Position numbers and translations under genes: made by a program. 64,000 nucleotides of DNA, taken from contig JAJFHA010000027.1 in NCBI GenBank assembly GCA_021775875.1, positions 21,599-85,598 of the forward strand, written 5' to 3'. Shown in pieces: positions 1 through 6,209 of this stretch (positions are counted from its first letter, which is position 1; each line of letters begins with the position of its first letter). The notes under the pieces were generated by a model, which ran no database searches, had not been told where the DNA came from, and saw only the letters and a program-made list of their open reading frames with translations. This stretch comes from Hyphomicrobiales bacterium (GTDB taxonomy: Bacteria > Pseudomonadota > Alphaproteobacteria > Rhizobiales > NORP267).

Positions 1-348
1 GTTGGCAATTATGTACTCCTGTCCGGCCACGGATTTGCCTGGAGTCAAGACCCGTTAATTGCATTCAATCCTGTTTGTGGGGGAGGGTTCGAATGCTGGT
101 AATCAAATGCAGGATCAGGCTTTCTGCTTTATCGAGCATTGTTAGCCAGCAGGCGGGACCGTCGCCGGAGAATGGAGACAATTGATAGGTCATGACCCTG
201 GTTTTGAGGCTGAATTTAAGGCTGACTGCGGCAATAATTTTACGCATCGTAAAAGAATCAATGGTAAAAATAATCAGTGTAAGGCATTGTTTTTAAGAGG
301 TAAAATAAGACGTGAACAGATCATAAAGTGACCGGAATCGACGTTTTT

Positions 349-366
349 TGTGTCATTTGTGTAACA
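349..366 (+). promoter_or_regulatory. TGT-N12-ACA box upstream of porin 1
   Basis: TGTGTCATTTGTGTAACA; ends 49 nt before a TTGAAC -35-like hexamer at 415 (-10-like TATCAAT follows); same layout as upstream of porin 2. Regulator unknown. Confidence 0.4.
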
Positions 367-555
367 CTCTTTTCCTATTCGCTCCGAACCAGACCTTTTG
401 GGTGCTGAAATCGGTTGAACTAGCTCTCTTCCTTGGTATCAATGCACCTATGCTTTTGCGCATTTGCGTTCAAGTACCAACCCTGCAGCCAGGTTATCCG
501 GGCAAACCCGAAAGGTGGTCGCAGGAAATTTTCGAAGGATTTAGGAGGTCCTATT

Positions 556-1869
556 ATGACTAAACTTAAGAGCCTATTGCTGGGTACTGCGGGAGCTCTT
601 CTGCTTTCCTCAGGCGCAGCTGTAGCAGCTGACCAGCCGCAGGCGCCACAGCGCACTCCGGTCTGGGCATGTGACATTACCGGTTTCTGGGAACTTCCCG
701 GCACCGATATCTGCTTCAAGGTTGGTGGCTATGCCAAAGCCGACCTGATCCTCACTTTTGATGAATTCAATGCTAATCCAGGCGGTCTTGCCGCTGGTGG
801 TTCTGGCTCAGAATTTCTCGACACGGTTTTTGGCCTGGTCGGGATTGCCCGGGGTGGCGCTGGTACACTGGGTAATGGCGACGAAGCCCGTATCCATGCT
901 CGCCAGTCCCGTGTTAACTTTGATGCTCGTACGAACACTTCTTATGGTACCGTTCGCGCATTCATCGAAGGTGACTTCTTTGGTACAGGTGGCAACGAGA
1001 CGATTTCAAACTCGTCTGCGCTTCGCCTGCGTCATGCTTTCGTTCAGTTCGGCAACCTGCTTGCCGGTCAGACCTGGGGCACCTTCATGAATCTCCCGGC
1101 ACTTTACGACACCCTCGACTTTGGTGGTGCCGGTGCTGTGAGCTTTATCCGTCAAGCCCAGTTCCGCTGGACCCAGCCTTTGGGCAATGGTGTGAGCCTT
1201 GTTGTGGCGATCGAAAACCCGGAAAACATGGATATTCGTAACGTTGCGTTGCGGACTTCTGTTAATGACGAAGTTCCGGATTTTGTAGCCAAGCTGGTCG
1301 TTGCACAGGCATGGGGTCATATCGAACTTGCTGGTGTGCTTCGTGACATGCAGGGTGGCCAAGTGGCTGGAGCTGCTAATCTTCCGCTCATGCCAGCTGG
1401 CACCGTTCTCGAAGATGAAGTTGGCTGGGCCGTTTCATTTAGTGGCCGGATCAAACTTCCGGTTGCCAATGGCAAAGATGATATCCGCTTTAACGCCATC
1501 TACAGTGATGGTGGCACCCGGTATCTTCTTAATGCTGCTCTGATGGGTCTAGCCAATGGCGGAACCGAAGGTGCTCGTGAATGGAACAATGCAGGTCAAT
1601 TGCTTGAATCCTACGGTGTATCCGCTGGTTTCCGGCATTTCTGGTCGGATAACCTCCGGTCCAACCTGATCGGTAGTGTCACGGTCCTCGACAATGTTCT
1701 TATTGGCACTTCTGTTGAAGAGACCCACACGGTCTTTGCCAACCTGATCTGGTCGCCTGTACCGCGTGTCGATATGGGTATCGAGTTTATCTGGTCAGAA
1801 CTTGAACTTCTGAACGGTACCTCGGCTGATCTGTCTCGCCTTCAGGTCTCAGTCTCACGCAGCTTCTAG
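556..1869 (+). CDS. Major outer-membrane porin, copy 1 (Omp2/RopA-type N-terminus, DcaP-like barrel motifs)
   Basis: ATG 556 after GGAGG (544-548); signal peptide MTKLKSLLLGTAGALLLSSGAAVA; CDITGFWELPGTDICFKVGGY resembles the Omp2/RopA N-terminal Cys motif; ARQSR..YGTVRAFIEGDF, LRLRHAF, LLAGQTW; C-terminal Phe. The track start at 433 is too far upstream. Confidence 0.9.
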   Translation: MTKLKSLLLGTAGALLLSSGAAVAADQPQAPQRTPVWACDITGFWELPGTDICFKVGGYAKADLILTFDEFNANPGGLAAGGSGSEFLDTVFGLVGIARGGAGTLGNGDEARIHARQSRVNFDARTNTSYGTVRAFIEGDFFGTGGNETISNSSALRLRHAFVQFGNLLAGQTWGTFMNLPALYDTLDFGGAGAVSFIRQAQFRWTQPLGNGVSLVVAIENPENMDIRNVALRTSVNDEVPDFVAKLVVAQAWGHIELAGVLRDMQGGQVAGAANLPLMPAGTVLEDEVGWAVSFSGRIKLPVANGKDDIRFNAIYSDGGTRYLLNAALMGLANGGTEGAREWNNAGQLLESYGVSAGFRHFWSDNLRSNLIGSVTVLDNVLIGTSVEETHTVFANLIWSPVPRVDMGIEFIWSELELLNGTSADLSRLQVSVSRSF

Positions 1870-1950
1870 GCTTCGTTTGATCTGAACTAGTCAGGTATCT
1901 GACACGTCCGTTTCTGACAGACCCCGGTGGTTTTCGGACCACCGGGGTTT
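625..1950 (+). repeat. Direct repeat copy 1 (1326 bp, pairs with 2617-3942)
   Basis: Same 1992-nt offset at the start (GCAGCTGACC), internally and at the terminator; 35 amino-acid differences counted over the 413-aa mature proteins. Confidence 0.95.
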
Positions 1951-1954
1951 TTTT
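1920..1954 (+). terminator. Rho-independent terminator of porin 1
   Basis: GACCCCGGTGGTT-TTCG-GACCACCGGGG followed by a run of 7 T. Confidence 0.9.
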
Positions 1955-2007
1955 GTGTGTAGTTTTTGAATTTATCATTCTGAATGTCCTCTGAATCCCC
2001 CCAAAAT

Positions 2008-2144
2008 CCGTCATTCCGGGATAAGCCGGAATCCAGAGCGGACGTGCTAAGTGTTGGATCGCTAAAGCTGGATCCCGGATCGCACGGCGGGTCAACGTTT
2101 GCGCCATGCAAGATATCCAGGCCGCCGCTTGTCCGGGATGACGG
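2008..2144. repeat. CGTC-type REP-like palindromic element (inverted dimer)
   Basis: CCGTCATTCCGG-GATAAG-CCGGAATCCAG ... CTGGATCCCGGA ... GTCCGGGATGACGG; typical alphaproteobacterial CGTCAT.../...ATGACG repeat. Only copy I found in the window. Confidence 0.7.
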
Positions 2145-2289
2145 GGAGACTAAAGTTGTTTCGAATCAAAATTCTGCCTGAATTCGCCTATCTCTTGACA
2201 TAATCCAGCGACAAAACATTTTCCTTCGCGGTGAAATTTACAAAAAATTTTGGCCGAATTCACGAGAAAAACCGGTTTGCGTCACGTTT

Positions 2290-2309
2290 CTGTGATCAAA
2301 ATATCACAG
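2290..2309 (+). promoter_or_regulatory. Perfect palindrome (TGT-N12-ACA) upstream of porin 2
   Basis: CTGTGAT-CAAAAT-ATCACAG; the ACA ends 48 nt before TTGAAT at 2356, which is followed by a CTATTC -10-like element. Confidence 0.5.
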
Positions 2310-2544
2310 TGCACGGAAAATACCTCTGCAGACCATCAGAATGCGGTTCTTTTCATTGAATTCATAATCAGCCTGCTGTCTATTCAGTTTCGGAACAACT
2401 TGATCTCAGCTCTTGTTAGTTGAAGCAAAGCGTTTCGGACAGGGCAAACGTTCTGTTCTGATGGGGGGTCTGCAGATACCTGCTTCGCCATTTCGGCAAA
2501 AAGGATATCGGGGCCCGACTTTATAACTTTAGTGGAGGTCTATT

Positions 2545-3861
2545 ATGAAAATGACCAAAAATCTGCTTCTCGGGTCGGTCGCCGCAGCCTTTGTGCTGGG
2601 TGGCAGTGCGGCTCTTGCAGCTGACCAGCCGCAGGCGCCACAGCGCACTCCGGTCTGGGCATGTGACATTACCGGTTTCTGGGAACTTCCCAACACCGAT
2701 ATCTGCTTCAAGGTTGGTGGCTATGCCAAAGCCGACCTGATCATCACTTTTGATGAATACAATGCTAATCCAGGCGGTCTTGCCGCTGGTGGTTCTGGCT
2801 CAGAATTTCTCGACACGGTTTTTGGCCTGGTCGGGATTGCACGTGGCGGCGCTGGTACACTGGGTAATGGCGACGAAGTTCGCCTCCATGCTCGCCAGTC
2901 CCGTGTTAACTTTGATGCCCGCACGAACACCTCTTATGGTACCGTTCGCGCATTCATCGAAGGTGACTTCTTTGGTACAGGCGGCAACGAGACGATTTCA
3001 AACTCGTCCGCACTTCGCCTGCGTCATGCTTTCGTTCAGTTCGGCAACCTGCTTGCCGGTCAGACCTGGTCAACCTTTATGGGATTGCCAGCACTTTATG
3101 ACACCCTCGACTTTGGTGGTGCCGGTGCTGTGACCTTCCTTCGTCAATCCCAGTTCCGCTGGACCCAGCCTCTGGGCAATGGTGTGAGCCTTGTTCTGGC
3201 GATCGAAAATCCGGAAAACGCGGATGTTCGTAACGTTGCGTTGCGGACTTCTGTCAATGACGAGTTGCCAGACTTTGTTGCCAAGCTTGTTGTCGGCCAG
3301 GAATGGGGCCATGTCGAACTTGGCATCGTTCTCCGTGACATGCAGGGTGGCCAAGTGGCTGGAGCTGCTAATCTTCCGCTCATGCCAGCTGGCACCGTTC
3401 TCGAAGATGATATTGGCTGGGCTGTTACCTTTAATGGCCGGATCAAACTTCCGGTTGCCAATGGCAAAGATGATATCCGCTTTAACGCCCTCTACAGTGA
3501 AGGTGGTACCCGGTATCTTCTTAATGCAGCTCTGATGGGTCTAGCCAATGGCGGAACCGAAGGTGCTCGTGAATGGAACAATGCAGGTCAATTGCTCGAA
3601 GCTTGGGGTGTATCCGCTGGTTTCCGGCATTTCTGGTCTGATAACCTCCGGTCTAACCTGATCGGTAGTGTCACGCACATGGAAAATGTTCTGATTGGCA
3701 CTTCTGTTGAAGAGACACACACTGTCTTTGCCAACCTGATCTGGTCGCCTGTTCCGCGTGTCGATATGGGTATCGAGTTTATCTGGTCAGAACTTGATCT
3801 TCTGAACGGTACCTCGGCTGATCTGTCTCGCATCATGGCATCCATCTCACGCAGCTTCTAG
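2545..3861 (+). CDS. Major outer-membrane porin, copy 2
   Basis: GGAGG RBS then ATG 2545; different signal peptide MKMTKNLLLGSVAAAFVLGGSAALA; mature protein about 91% identical to copy 1; C-terminal Phe. Confidence 0.9.
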   Translation: MKMTKNLLLGSVAAAFVLGGSAALAADQPQAPQRTPVWACDITGFWELPNTDICFKVGGYAKADLIITFDEYNANPGGLAAGGSGSEFLDTVFGLVGIARGGAGTLGNGDEVRLHARQSRVNFDARTNTSYGTVRAFIEGDFFGTGGNETISNSSALRLRHAFVQFGNLLAGQTWSTFMGLPALYDTLDFGGAGAVTFLRQSQFRWTQPLGNGVSLVLAIENPENADVRNVALRTSVNDELPDFVAKLVVGQEWGHVELGIVLRDMQGGQVAGAANLPLMPAGTVLEDDIGWAVTFNGRIKLPVANGKDDIRFNALYSEGGTRYLLNAALMGLANGGTEGAREWNNAGQLLEAWGVSAGFRHFWSDNLRSNLIGSVTHMENVLIGTSVEETHTVFANLIWSPVPRVDMGIEFIWSELDLLNGTSADLSRIMASISRSF

Positions 3862-3942
3862 GCTTCGTTTGATCTGAACTAGTCAGGTATCTGACACGTC
3901 AGTTTCTGACAGACCCCGGTGGTTTTCGGACCACCGGGGTTT
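2617..3942 (+). repeat. Direct repeat copy 2 (pairs with 625-1950)
   Basis: See copy 1; includes mature porin CDS, 3' UTR and terminator stem. Confidence 0.95.
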
Positions 3943-3943
3943 C
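3912..3943 (+). terminator. Terminator hairpin of porin 2 with short U-tract
   Basis: Same stem-loop as 1920-1954 but followed by TTTC instead of T7. Confidence 0.7.
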
Positions 3944-3959
3944 TAAAAAGAAAGATTTT

Positions 3960-4077
3960 TAATTTACTGCAGCAAGATCGGTCCCGGACTGGTTGAGCGA
4001 TTTGATAACAAAAAACCTCCTAAGTCCTTCAATAGCGTGGAACGGTATTCTCTGAATCCTCTCCGCGCTATTTTTTT
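3960..4077 (+). ncRNA. Candidate small RNA with anti-Shine-Dalgarno seed (5' end uncertain)
   Basis: Short 5' hairpin ATCGGTC/GACTGGT, A-rich linker, ACCTCCTAAGTCCTTC (4015-4030) complementary to 534-549, then hairpin and T7. Prediction only. Confidence 0.45.
4031..4077 (+). terminator. Second intrinsic terminator downstream of porin 2
   Basis: AATAGCGTGGA (4031-4041) pairs with TCCGCGCTATT (4062-4072); inner ATTC/GAAT stem; T run 4071-4077. Confidence 0.65.
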
Positions 4078-4221
4078 GTCTTAACTTGTCTCGTTCACGT
4101 TGGCAGCGCGTGCGTATTATGTTCTTATCGCCATCGAATTTGAGTGCTGTATTTGATGTGATGCTGGCCAAATTAGTTGGACGGATTCATACACGGCGCG
4201 TTCTGAGTGAGGGTTAGTTGC

Positions 4222-5625
4222 ATGTTTCATCCAGCAAAATTTTTGTGGGGGTTGTTGCCGCTTTTGTTGCTCGCATTGGTTACGTTATGGGCCAAGAGCG
4301 ATGCAATTCAGGATGATCTGGCGTCGCGTACGAATACAGAGCGGCGTGCGGAAGGACATCGATGGGCGCGGGTTGAAATGGACGGGCGCGACTTGAGCCT
4401 TACCGGGACCGCGCCGACAGAAGCTGATCGTTCGCAAATGATGGAAATCGCGGCGGCTATTTGGGGTGTCAGGCAGGTTAGTGACAATACCGAACTTCTG
4501 GTGATTTTTGATCCTTATATCTGGTCGGCCGAGAGAACGGATCGCAACATCATTTTGACCGGGTACGCCCCGAATAGAGAGAGTCGCAAAAGCATTGTTG
4601 ATGCTGCGAAAGCCAGTTTCCCGGATTTGCGTGTGAAAAATGAAATTGAATATGGTCGCGGTGCGCCGGTGAATTTTGAAATTGCAACGGCATTTGCATT
4701 TAGCCAGCTAGGGTATTTGCAGGAAGGCAGTGTAACATTTTCCAACCAGACGATTGCTTTTTCGGGCCGGGCCGCGAATTTGGAAAGTTATAATGCGGCA
4801 CTTGCTGTCATTAGCAACCCCGAACTACCCACCGGATTTACACTTGGGGATAGCAATATTTCCCGCCCGATTGCCAGTCCGTTCGTCTTTTCGGTAAAGC
4901 GCGTGGGTCGAAACATTCAATTATCCGGATTTGCCCCCACTGACGAAGAAAAAGCGGGTATTTTGGCTACCGTGGCACGAAAATTCCCGAATTTTGTCAT
5001 AGATGACCAGATCAATATTGCTGACGGTGCGCCTGACGGATGGCGTGCGATAGCAAATTTTGCCTTGCAGCAAATTAGCCGCCTTGTTTCAGGCGAAGCC
5101 GTTATCAGTGATACAGAAATTGCGGTGAGCGGGGAGGCGGTGCATCAGGGGGCGATCGATGGCATTGTTACTGCATTGAATGGTGCACTTCCAGCTGGAT
5201 TTTCAGGTGCTGGCGAGATTGCGATTGCGGCGCCTGGTCCTCCGGTAGATTTATTTGCCTGCCAGGATTTTTTCAATGAAGTGATGGGCAGCGAGAAAAT
5301 CCTGTTCGATGTGGGCGACGCCATGATCAGCATGGATAGCATGCGGGTGATTGATGAAATTGTGGTTGTTGCGCTACGATGCCCCAATGGAAAAATAGCA
5401 ATCCTTGGGCATACAGATGATGATGGTGATGATGCTTCAAACCAGAATTTGAGCGAAGTCCGGGCCAATTCTGTCCGGAGTGCCATGATAGCCGGAGGCA
5501 TCAGCGACACCCGCTTGACGGCGATTGGATATGGCGAAAGCCGTCCTGTTACGTCGAATGAAACCGAAGACGGCAAAGCTGCCAACCGGCGAATCGAATT
5601 CCGGGTTGTCCGGATCCAGTATTAG
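4222..5625 (+). CDS. Membrane-anchored OmpA-family protein with repeated BON-like domains (ArfA/Rv0899-like)
   Basis: N-terminal TM helix; three repeats DGRDLSLTGTAP / TDRNIILTGYAP / VGRNIQLSGFAP; C-terminal OmpA-like domain GHTD...NQNLSEVRANSV...GYGESRPV...NRRIEF. ATG 4222 preferred over GTG 4207. Confidence 0.85.
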   Translation: MFHPAKFLWGLLPLLLLALVTLWAKSDAIQDDLASRTNTERRAEGHRWARVEMDGRDLSLTGTAPTEADRSQMMEIAAAIWGVRQVSDNTELLVIFDPYIWSAERTDRNIILTGYAPNRESRKSIVDAAKASFPDLRVKNEIEYGRGAPVNFEIATAFAFSQLGYLQEGSVTFSNQTIAFSGRAANLESYNAALAVISNPELPTGFTLGDSNISRPIASPFVFSVKRVGRNIQLSGFAPTDEEKAGILATVARKFPNFVIDDQINIADGAPDGWRAIANFALQQISRLVSGEAVISDTEIAVSGEAVHQGAIDGIVTALNGALPAGFSGAGEIAIAAPGPPVDLFACQDFFNEVMGSEKILFDVGDAMISMDSMRVIDEIVVVALRCPNGKIAILGHTDDDGDDASNQNLSEVRANSVRSAMIAGGISDTRLTAIGYGESRPVTSNETEDGKAANRRIEFRVVRIQY

Positions 5626-5634
5626 GAGCGTAGA

Positions 5635-5733
5635 ATGGATTATCTGCTGTCAGAATTATGGCCGTTTATGATCGCTGCATTGGCGATCGGGATTTTCACC
5701 GGTTGGTTGGCTGTCTCTCCGCCACGCTCATAA
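5635..5733 (+). CDS. 32-aa single-TM peptide (ArfB/Rv0900-like), absent from the ORF track
   Basis: AGGAG at 5624-5628, ATG 5635, MDYLLSELWPFMIAALAIGIFTGWLAVSPPRS, TAA 5731-5733; fills the gap between two co-oriented genes. Confidence 0.75.
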   Translation: MDYLLSELWPFMIAALAIGIFTGWLAVSPPRS

Positions 5734-5771
5734 AATTTGGGCGTTGATATAGTTGAATTGAGGATGCTGAA

Positions 5772-6209
5772 ATGGGCTATATGATTTTCCAGACGTTGAT
5801 TTTGTTGCTGGCCGCATTCATTGTCGGTTGCATTTTAGGCTATTGGCTGAAACGCACTTTTGGCGCGTCAAACACTGACAGTCCAACTGCTGTGGCGGTA
5901 TCTCCTGTTCCAGCGGATGGACGTCCGGAATCTTTGGCTGCGCCGATTGGTGGCACCAAAGATGATTTGAAACGGATCAAAGGTGTCGGCAAAGTCATCG
6001 AAGACAAGTTGAACGGTTTGGGGATATTTCATTTCAGCCAGATCGCCGAATGGGGCGCTGATGAAATTACCTGGGTTGACGGGTATCTTTCTTTCAAAGG
6101 CCGGATCGAACGTGACGGTTGGGCCAATCAAGCGAAAACCTTGACCGAAGGCGGAGAAACCAATTTTTCAAAACGCGTCGACAAGGGTGAAGTTGCCAGC
6201 AGTTCCTGA
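5772..6209 (+). CDS. TM protein with helix-hairpin-helix-like domain (ArfC-like position)
   Basis: N-terminal TM MGYMIFQTLILLLAAFIVGCILGYWL; DDLKRIKGVGKVIEDKLNGLGIFHFSQIAEW...GRIERDGW is the domain also seen appended to alphaproteobacterial NuoE. Confidence 0.75.
   Translation: MGYMIFQTLILLLAAFIVGCILGYWLKRTFGASNTDSPTAVAVSPVPADGRPESLAAPIGGTKDDLKRIKGVGKVIEDKLNGLGIFHFSQIAEWGADEITWVDGYLSFKGRIERDGWANQAKTLTEGGETNFSKRVDKGEVASSS

Follow-up and report, generated by a model that had tools for sequence, protein, structure and literature searches.

The tandem porin locus

The window, meaning the whole 64,000-nt stretch of contig C20 that was analysed, belongs to a 3.13-Mb genome of the Hyphomicrobiales (G000), and coordinates are window positions unless a locus label precedes them (L031 being the corresponding locus of G001, a genome of the same genus). 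Two tandem porin genes stand at its start, followed by the segment 3960-4077, a candidate sRNA referred to here as the element, and by a gene for a protein with BON and OmpA domains (Table 1). Both porins score above the curated cut-offs for Pfam Porin_2 and DcaP (PF02530, 87.9 and 76.7 bits with a cut-off of 22; PF19577, 68.9 and 63.9 bits with a cut-off of 27), and DcaP-like 6EUS was the sole solved relative found with a profile of six homologues. No other strong porin copies of this type were found in the G000 genome. As the signal peptide of porin 1 resembles that of a single-copy relative, porin 1 is probably the older of the two copies. Gene order in G001 is the same as in G000, namely porin 1, porin 2, element, BON-OmpA gene, a small gene and a hydrolase gene. 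The porin genes of the two genomes are 72-73% identical, whereas the paralogues inside each genome are 91-93% identical, and the leaders and signal peptides remain orthologue-specific; this pattern suggests an old duplication homogenised by gene conversion. The homogenised tract begins where the signal peptide ends and reaches the base of the terminator hairpin (556-3861; L031 2078-5482), and a few residues in the C-terminal half of the porins are orthologue-specific in both species despite homogenisation.

Table 1. Features of the porin locus, in window positions
Feature	Position	Strand	Remarks
Palindrome, TGT-N12-ACA type, 18 bp	349..366	.	Upstream of porin 1 promoter; likely transcription-factor site
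Predicted porin 1 promoter	415..443	+	-35/-10-like hexamers read by eye; conserved blocks in 3-genome alignment
Hairpin in porin 1 leader	482..525	+	Conserved
U-rich stretch	526..533	+	Directly 5' of target; candidate Hfq rim contact (role suggested by the available text of PMC12205990)
Target site	534..549	+	Porin 1 Shine-Dalgarno plus upstream bases; weak hairpin, Shine-Dalgarno in or near the loop
Porin 1	556..1869	+	437 aa, Porin_2/DcaP
Porin 1 terminator	1919..1954	+	Intact intrinsic terminator, hairpin plus T7
Dispersed repeat, ~137 bp	2008..2144	.	Intergenic; many copies in G000, G001, G002 and G005; outside the circuit
Same 18-bp palindrome, opposite orientation	2291..2308	.	Upstream of porin 2 promoter
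Predicted porin 2 promoter and leader	2356..2544	+	Leader ~150 nt, conserved, structured; no Rfam match
Porin 2	2545..3861	+	438 aa, Porin_2/DcaP; gene predicted to host the RNA
Shared terminator hairpin behind porin 2	3911..3942	+	Without free U-tail; predicted read-through point
AU-rich stretch	3943..3967	+	Candidate RNase E cut region or weak -10 element
Predicted 5' hairpin of sRNA	3972..3998	+	From single-sequence folds
Identical block	3997..4021	+	25 nt; three AAN triplets (4007-4015) and anti-Shine-Dalgarno core
Seed	4015..4030	+	16 nt antisense to porin 1 ribosome-binding site; predicted single-stranded; compensatory changes in G001
Element terminator	4031..4077	+	Intrinsic; terminator of the putative sRNA and probably of porin 2 mRNA; T7 in both species
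BON + OmpA-domain gene	4222..5625	+	Downstream; syntenic in G001; not a predicted target

The palindrome upstream of porin 1 is kept in G000, G001 and G002, and look-alikes are seen upstream of the single porin genes in G003 and G005, which represent two other genera (L005 1280-1297 and the G005 leader). The distance from the palindrome to the predicted -35 is 48 nt at porin 1 and 47 nt at porin 2. This shared arrangement suggests that one regulator could serve both porins. A matrix scan placed the two porin sites, on which the matrix had been trained, first; the next three sites, at C3 337725, C3 87794 and C20 97660, are intergenic. The porin 2 leader is a candidate cis-regulatory RNA: the consensus fold of 2392-2544 pairs its 5' end with its own Shine-Dalgarno (SD) sequence and contains one-sided changes that keep the pairing, and the single-sequence fold of the G000 leader differs from this consensus. 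A tRNA-Ser(GCT) gene is divergent from porin 1 (L136 6415-6504, upstream of the window; L032 4419-4508), and in G000 it lies ~700 bp before the window start, with a gene for a large repeat-rich secreted-type protein further upstream. A second dispersed intergenic repeat family is found at ~44-168, with several copies in G000; by appearance, both families are REP-like.

Both porin genes end in the same hairpin. Behind porin 1 it is followed by a U-tail in G000 and G001, as it is behind the single porins of G003 and G005. Behind porin 2, by contrast, the window has TTTCTAAAAAG in place of the T7 of the porin 1 copy, and the tail is lost in both of the two species with porin 2 assembled, so that the U-tract loss claimed in a preliminary description of this DNA holds beyond the window. 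That the tail is lost behind porin 2 in both species and kept in single-porin relatives favours read-through. The AU-rich stretch that follows is present in both species with diverged sequence. A hairpin of different, unrelated sequence is predicted in G001 at the place of the 5' hairpin of G000, and the consensus fold of the two-species alignment contains no hairpin at 3972-3998. An A-run (4010-4015), the seed, a hairpin (4031-4072, z = -4.98) and T7 (4071-4077) then follow in the order that had been described. All 14 pairs of the element terminator are kept in both species (28 of 28 cells paired), 4 of the 14 being changed on both sides; slid controls gave no two-sided changes, and the shuffle control (32 of 500) is weak with 2 rows. 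As the first U-tailed hairpin after porin 2 is that at 4031-4077, the porin 2 transcript probably includes the element, which would thus lie, as 3'-UTR sRNAs do, within the 3' UTR of its host mRNA and share its terminator.

Pairing of the element with the porin 1 ribosome-binding site

An inverted-repeat search recovered the antisense match that had been claimed between the element and porin 1. The seed ACCTCCTAAGTCCTTC (4015-4030) is complementary to GAAGGATTTAGGAGGT (534-549) at 15 of 16 positions, and the sixteenth is a G:U pair when both are read as plus-strand RNA. The seed is predicted to be open, exposure costing 0.9 and 0.5 kcal/mol, of which 0.9 kcal/mol is the value for 4015-4030. 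As had also been claimed, the match to the porin 2 ribosome-binding site (RBS) is short, with a contiguous core of only 6 bp and -13.1 kcal/mol, compared with -28.3 kcal/mol for porin 1. When G:U pairs and at most one further mismatch were allowed, the seed complement was found at two sites on both strands of the genome, one being the strand opposite the seed itself and the other the porin 1 RBS; with two mismatches, 22 sites were found.

Targets were ranked over the start regions of 2862 crude, self-called ORFs of G000. With the 23-nt seed region as query, porin 1 ranked first of 2862 at -28.3 kcal/mol, with the runner-up at -21.7 kcal/mol and porin 2 at rank 586. Linker and seed together still placed porin 1 first, with a lead of only 1.6 kcal/mol. 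The expectation that porin 1 should stand at or near the top was thus borne out for these queries, and again when opening costs were added (-20.8 kcal/mol against -12.9 for the next, among the best 150 of 13,236 start regions). It failed for the entire 81-nt RNA scored with no accessibility term, for which porin 1 ranked 689 of 2862 owing to promiscuous pairing of the terminator arms under that model. After opening costs a single target stands ~8 kcal/mol clear, short anti-SD targets of 6-8 bp being beyond such prediction. Two further pairings were discarded: the BON-OmpA gene, considered as a target or an attenuated gene, pairs over at most 6-7 bp, and a second contact of the 5' block beside the start codon (5-6 bp by eye) is absent from the best duplex. 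As an empirical null, the 200 nt behind a gene were compared with the start region of a gene no more than 5 kb away; of 24,830 such pairs, 6000 were drawn, 21 were dropped as too short, and 2 of the 5979 scored reached at least 16 contiguous pairs (~3e-4 per pair). The match alone is therefore rare but neither unique nor proof, and the case rests on comparative evidence.

That evidence comes mainly from G001. Its target carries a T-to-A change and is one base shorter than that of G000, and its seed carries an A-to-T change and a 1-nt deletion, both matching its target. Seed (L031 5634-5649) and target (L031 2055-2070) pair at 16 of 16 positions, with one G:U at a position other than that in G000, so that the non-Watson-Crick positions of both genomes are G:U in the plus-strand reading. 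Cognate duplexes reach -28.3 and -26.0 kcal/mol, whereas cross-species duplexes reach -23.0 and -19.9 kcal/mol. A search of the G001 genome for the seed complement, with at most two mismatches, returned no site besides the seed and the porin 1 RBS. Co-variation of seed and RBS, which had been proposed as a check, is thus seen as a matched substitution and deletion in the one informative relative, the evidence amounting to two species and about two compensatory events. The 25-nt block that includes the start of the seed is identical at 25 of 25 positions, whereas its flanks agree in only 27 of 64 and 70 of 160 columns (42-44%). G002 (genome 93% complete) has a target of the G000 type, on a contig that ends within porin 1, and its assembly lacks the downstream block. 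Judged from these sequences, the pairing of the seed with the porin 1 RBS is real and under selection, and the comparison as a whole supports a structured plus-strand RNA that would end at 4077 and carry a seed selected for the porin 1 RBS.

Within the genomes searched, the element appears to be confined to this genus, and the pair occurs in two species only. A covariance model built from the two copies found only those two among 151 order-level genomes and gave no match in G002-G005, the close comparison set being a family with five genomes besides G000. An Rfam scan of 1-6000 gave 4 matches up to an E-value of 10, all below gathering score and none over 3960-4077. All 10 matches of a metagenome pattern scan were chance matches, none of them near a porin, and viral contigs gave 0 matches to the element. 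A porin survey covered 94 loci, with 102 porin ORFs in 92 of them, and yielded 126 pairs of a downstream region with an RBS, including 26 cross pairs; 16 paired bases were found only at the G000 locus and at that of G001 (counted twice, as L031 and L134). The best match at the 5 other multi-porin loci was 13, including 2 G:U, and fell at a terminator. In other genomes of the order, at L124 (G024:C9), L125, L126 and L127, two to four related porins stand together, in tandem or divergently, and none of these clusters showed a long match of a 3' UTR to a sister RBS. Self matches of 12-13 nt in L065, L067 and L070 were rejected because they lie inside the coding region of the next gene.

A putative porin replacement switch and its alternatives

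The element is very probably a trans-acting repressor of porin 1: the seed is predicted to be accessible, it covers the SD of its target, and the pairing is conserved, as expected of a base-pairing repressor. The complete model, in which RNase E frees an sRNA from the porin 2 3' UTR and this sRNA blocks porin 1 translation, is given a probability of roughly 0.6. RNA polymerase starting at the porin 2 promoter would read through the tail-less hairpin and stop at 4077. RNase E would then cut within the AU-rich stretch, so that a protective hairpin remains at the 3' end of the porin 2 mRNA and an RNA of likely ~80-115 nt is set free, comprising the 5' hairpin, AAN repeats, seed and terminator. 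Genes for RNase E and Hfq are present in G000, and PF04352 (ProQ/FinO) gave 0 matches in this 100% complete genome. The hfq gene lies on the same contig (G000:C20:104584-104772), ~79 kb from the element. A class II Hfq sRNA is described in the available text of PMC12205990 as having a poly(U) tail and at least three ARN repeats, with a U-rich stretch upstream of its target. By sequence, T7 and three AAN triplets are found in both species and the U-rich stretch precedes the target in all three leaders of the genus. The element is thus probably Hfq-dependent and class II-like, a resemblance of sequence under binding rules that come from enterobacteria and may not be those of this Hfq. Hfq would hold the U-tail and AAN repeats, with the U-rich stretch before the target on its rim.

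The predicted outcome of the pairing is repression. The porin 1 RBS lies in a weak predicted hairpin that duplex formation would displace, and in the G000 co-fold both hairpins of the RNA stay intact with a gain of 22.5 kcal/mol. Activation through opening of the RBS hairpin was rejected, as the duplex itself covers the SD. With the whole porin 1 SD covered by the 16-bp duplex, porin 1 synthesis would fall whenever porin 2 is transcribed, and porin 2 would escape its own RNA because no more than 6 contiguous bases of its RBS pair. The outcome would be a one-way replacement of porin 1 by porin 2. The preliminary description had gone further and proposed mutual exclusion of the two porins, which exceeds the evidence: no conserved counterpart by which porin 1 would pair with porin 2 came to light, so that, from what is known at present, the switch would act in one direction only. 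A match of 11 nt between 2149 and the porin 2 leader was rejected, being located beyond the intact terminator of porin 1 and having no counterpart in G001.

The same RNA with the same target could also be made from a promoter of its own in the AU-rich stretch, sharing only the terminator with porin 2 in the manner of MicF, in which case porin 1 could be repressed independently of porin 2 transcription. By eye, both species show a -10-like hexamer in this stretch, spaced so that transcription would begin close to the predicted 5' hairpin. It is accompanied by no conserved -35, however, identity over 3939-3996 is 42%, and no porin-promoter palindrome lies nearby (best score 5.5-6.2 versus 22-26). 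A consensus promoter scan of 1-4400, which missed the predicted porin promoters too, found none, and neither species retains the U-tail of the upstream hairpin. This origin is considered rather unlikely. A chance match, in which an anti-SD-like run happens to stand by an ordinary terminator, or a functionless fossil of an inverted leader copy, must be weighed against the null given above, since the scanning of many windows yields such matches. Full pairing is nevertheless kept through a matched substitution and deletion although the porin genes have diverged to 72-73% identity, and it sits in a block far more conserved than its flanks, which makes chance or a relic improbable.

The two 16-mers are also inverted repeats flanking both genes, so recombination between them could flip a 3.5-kb porin block and cut porin 1 from its promoter, as in phase variation; such repeats would also need to co-vary, and the genome contains 5 tyrosine-recombinase and 2 serine-recombinase matches. 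None of these is on C20, however, and a single orientation is seen in the three assemblies (G000, G001 and G002, as far as assembled). The repeats moreover differ internally and vary in length between the species, their mismatches allow G:U pairing, and inversion would leave the covarying U-tailed hairpin and the A-rich block unexplained, so that this reading is considered very improbable. A minus-strand micro-gene is hardly credible. Read in reverse, the seed is a strong SD followed by TTG and four identical codons, and in both species the 25-nt block matches the extent of SD, spacer and five codons on that strand. Against this, the peptides diverge in sequence and length directly after the block, synonymous positions are frozen too, the SD spacing is only 4 nt, the G001 hairpin folds better on the plus strand (z -3.94 versus -2.76), where it has its U-tail, and the covariation with porin 1 is left unexplained. 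Small ORFs over the element were likewise set aside, neither frame nor product being conserved between G000 and G001.

Relation to known RNA regulators and possible origin

Porin exchange sets outer-membrane permeability, and its control by RNA is well described in enterobacteria and Pseudomonas. The micF gene adjoins ompC, ChiX silences the chitoporin gene chiP from a promoter of its own, and MalH, which stems from the malG mRNA's 3' end by RNase E-type release, reportedly represses in trans targets that are not paralogues of its host gene. The likeness to AbcR1/2 suggested in the preliminary description is a poor fit, as sRNAs of the AbcR type are broad anti-SD regulators with many targets and a single predicted target dominates for this seed. 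Closer analogues are FlaX and MicF.

FlaX of Vibrio, according to the available text of PMC11879080 and its extension in bioRxiv 10.64898/2026.08.28.747715, is released from the flaA 3' UTR through RNase E cleavage and keeps the flagellin gene flaB from being translated, so that, like the element, it is a 3'-UTR sRNA of one gene directed against a paralogous surface-protein gene. As described there, FlaX concerns flagellins, is ~265 nt long, is bound by ProQ, has several binding sites and activates other flagellins, whereas the element concerns tandem porins, has one 16-bp site in a genome in which ProQ was not found, and has no sequence relation to FlaX that could be found. Repression of ompF by MicF is subject to MicF's own transcriptional control (PMC13501541, available text), and MicF and MicC, as far as described, resemble the element in lowering one general porin by start-region pairing that is coupled to the control of another porin. 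MicF differs in having its own promoter (OmpR, SoxS) and further targets, whereas the element follows the paralogue, with both on the same strand. In Pseudomonas aeruginosa, Sr0161 lies between PA0160 and opdC and represses oprD translation with Hfq (PMC8395346 and PMC7264166, in the text available), and is thus likewise encoded beside one porin gene and directed against another; its target is distant, it has further targets (exsA), and no 3'-UTR origin appears in the available part of its description. FarS, a processed 3'-UTR sRNA that targets two fadE paralogues, shares RNase E-type release from an mRNA 3' end and repression in trans, and differs in that its targets are not paralogues of its host gene (PMC7148568, available text). 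Class II Hfq RNAs are viewed as silencers (PMC9068810, in the part available); members such as ChiX are defined, in the descriptions available, by binding tests with Hfq face mutants, whereas the element is likened to them by sequence. By analogy, the element would follow a logic known from FlaX and MicF and work like FlaX applied to porins. In the open-access literature, subscription papers and supplements aside, no porin 3'-UTR sRNA silencing a tandem paralogue was found. The same literature, supplementary sRNA catalogues aside, gave no case for an alphaproteobacterial Porin_2 or Omp2/RopA locus, in agreement with the earlier statement that none was known for the latter.

As to origin, the seed possibly arose from an inverted copy of the sister gene's own RBS after tandem duplication of the porin, and gene conversion would hold the coding regions at ~91-93% identity. 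As the coding regions are homogenised, the identity of each paralogue would reside mainly in the leaders and the 3' RNA. The single-porin relatives show the ancestral terminator, which allows a plausible sequence of duplication, tail loss and seed gain to be drawn up. It is possible, if doubtful, that the new copy dropped its terminator tail and gained a dedicated single-target RNA that silences its older twin, which would make the element a young, genus-restricted sRNA. The finding is taxonomically narrow and has a conceptual precedent, the pattern of a 3' UTR directed against a sister RBS being known so far mainly from Vibrio flagellins. It suggests a genome screen for long antisense matches between the 3' UTR of one paralogue and the RBS of its sister, and offers a compact circuit for which two species have supplied natural compensatory mutations. 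If the proposed course is true, the birth of a paralogue-silencing sRNA would be readable from this locus, which bears on how sRNAs arise.
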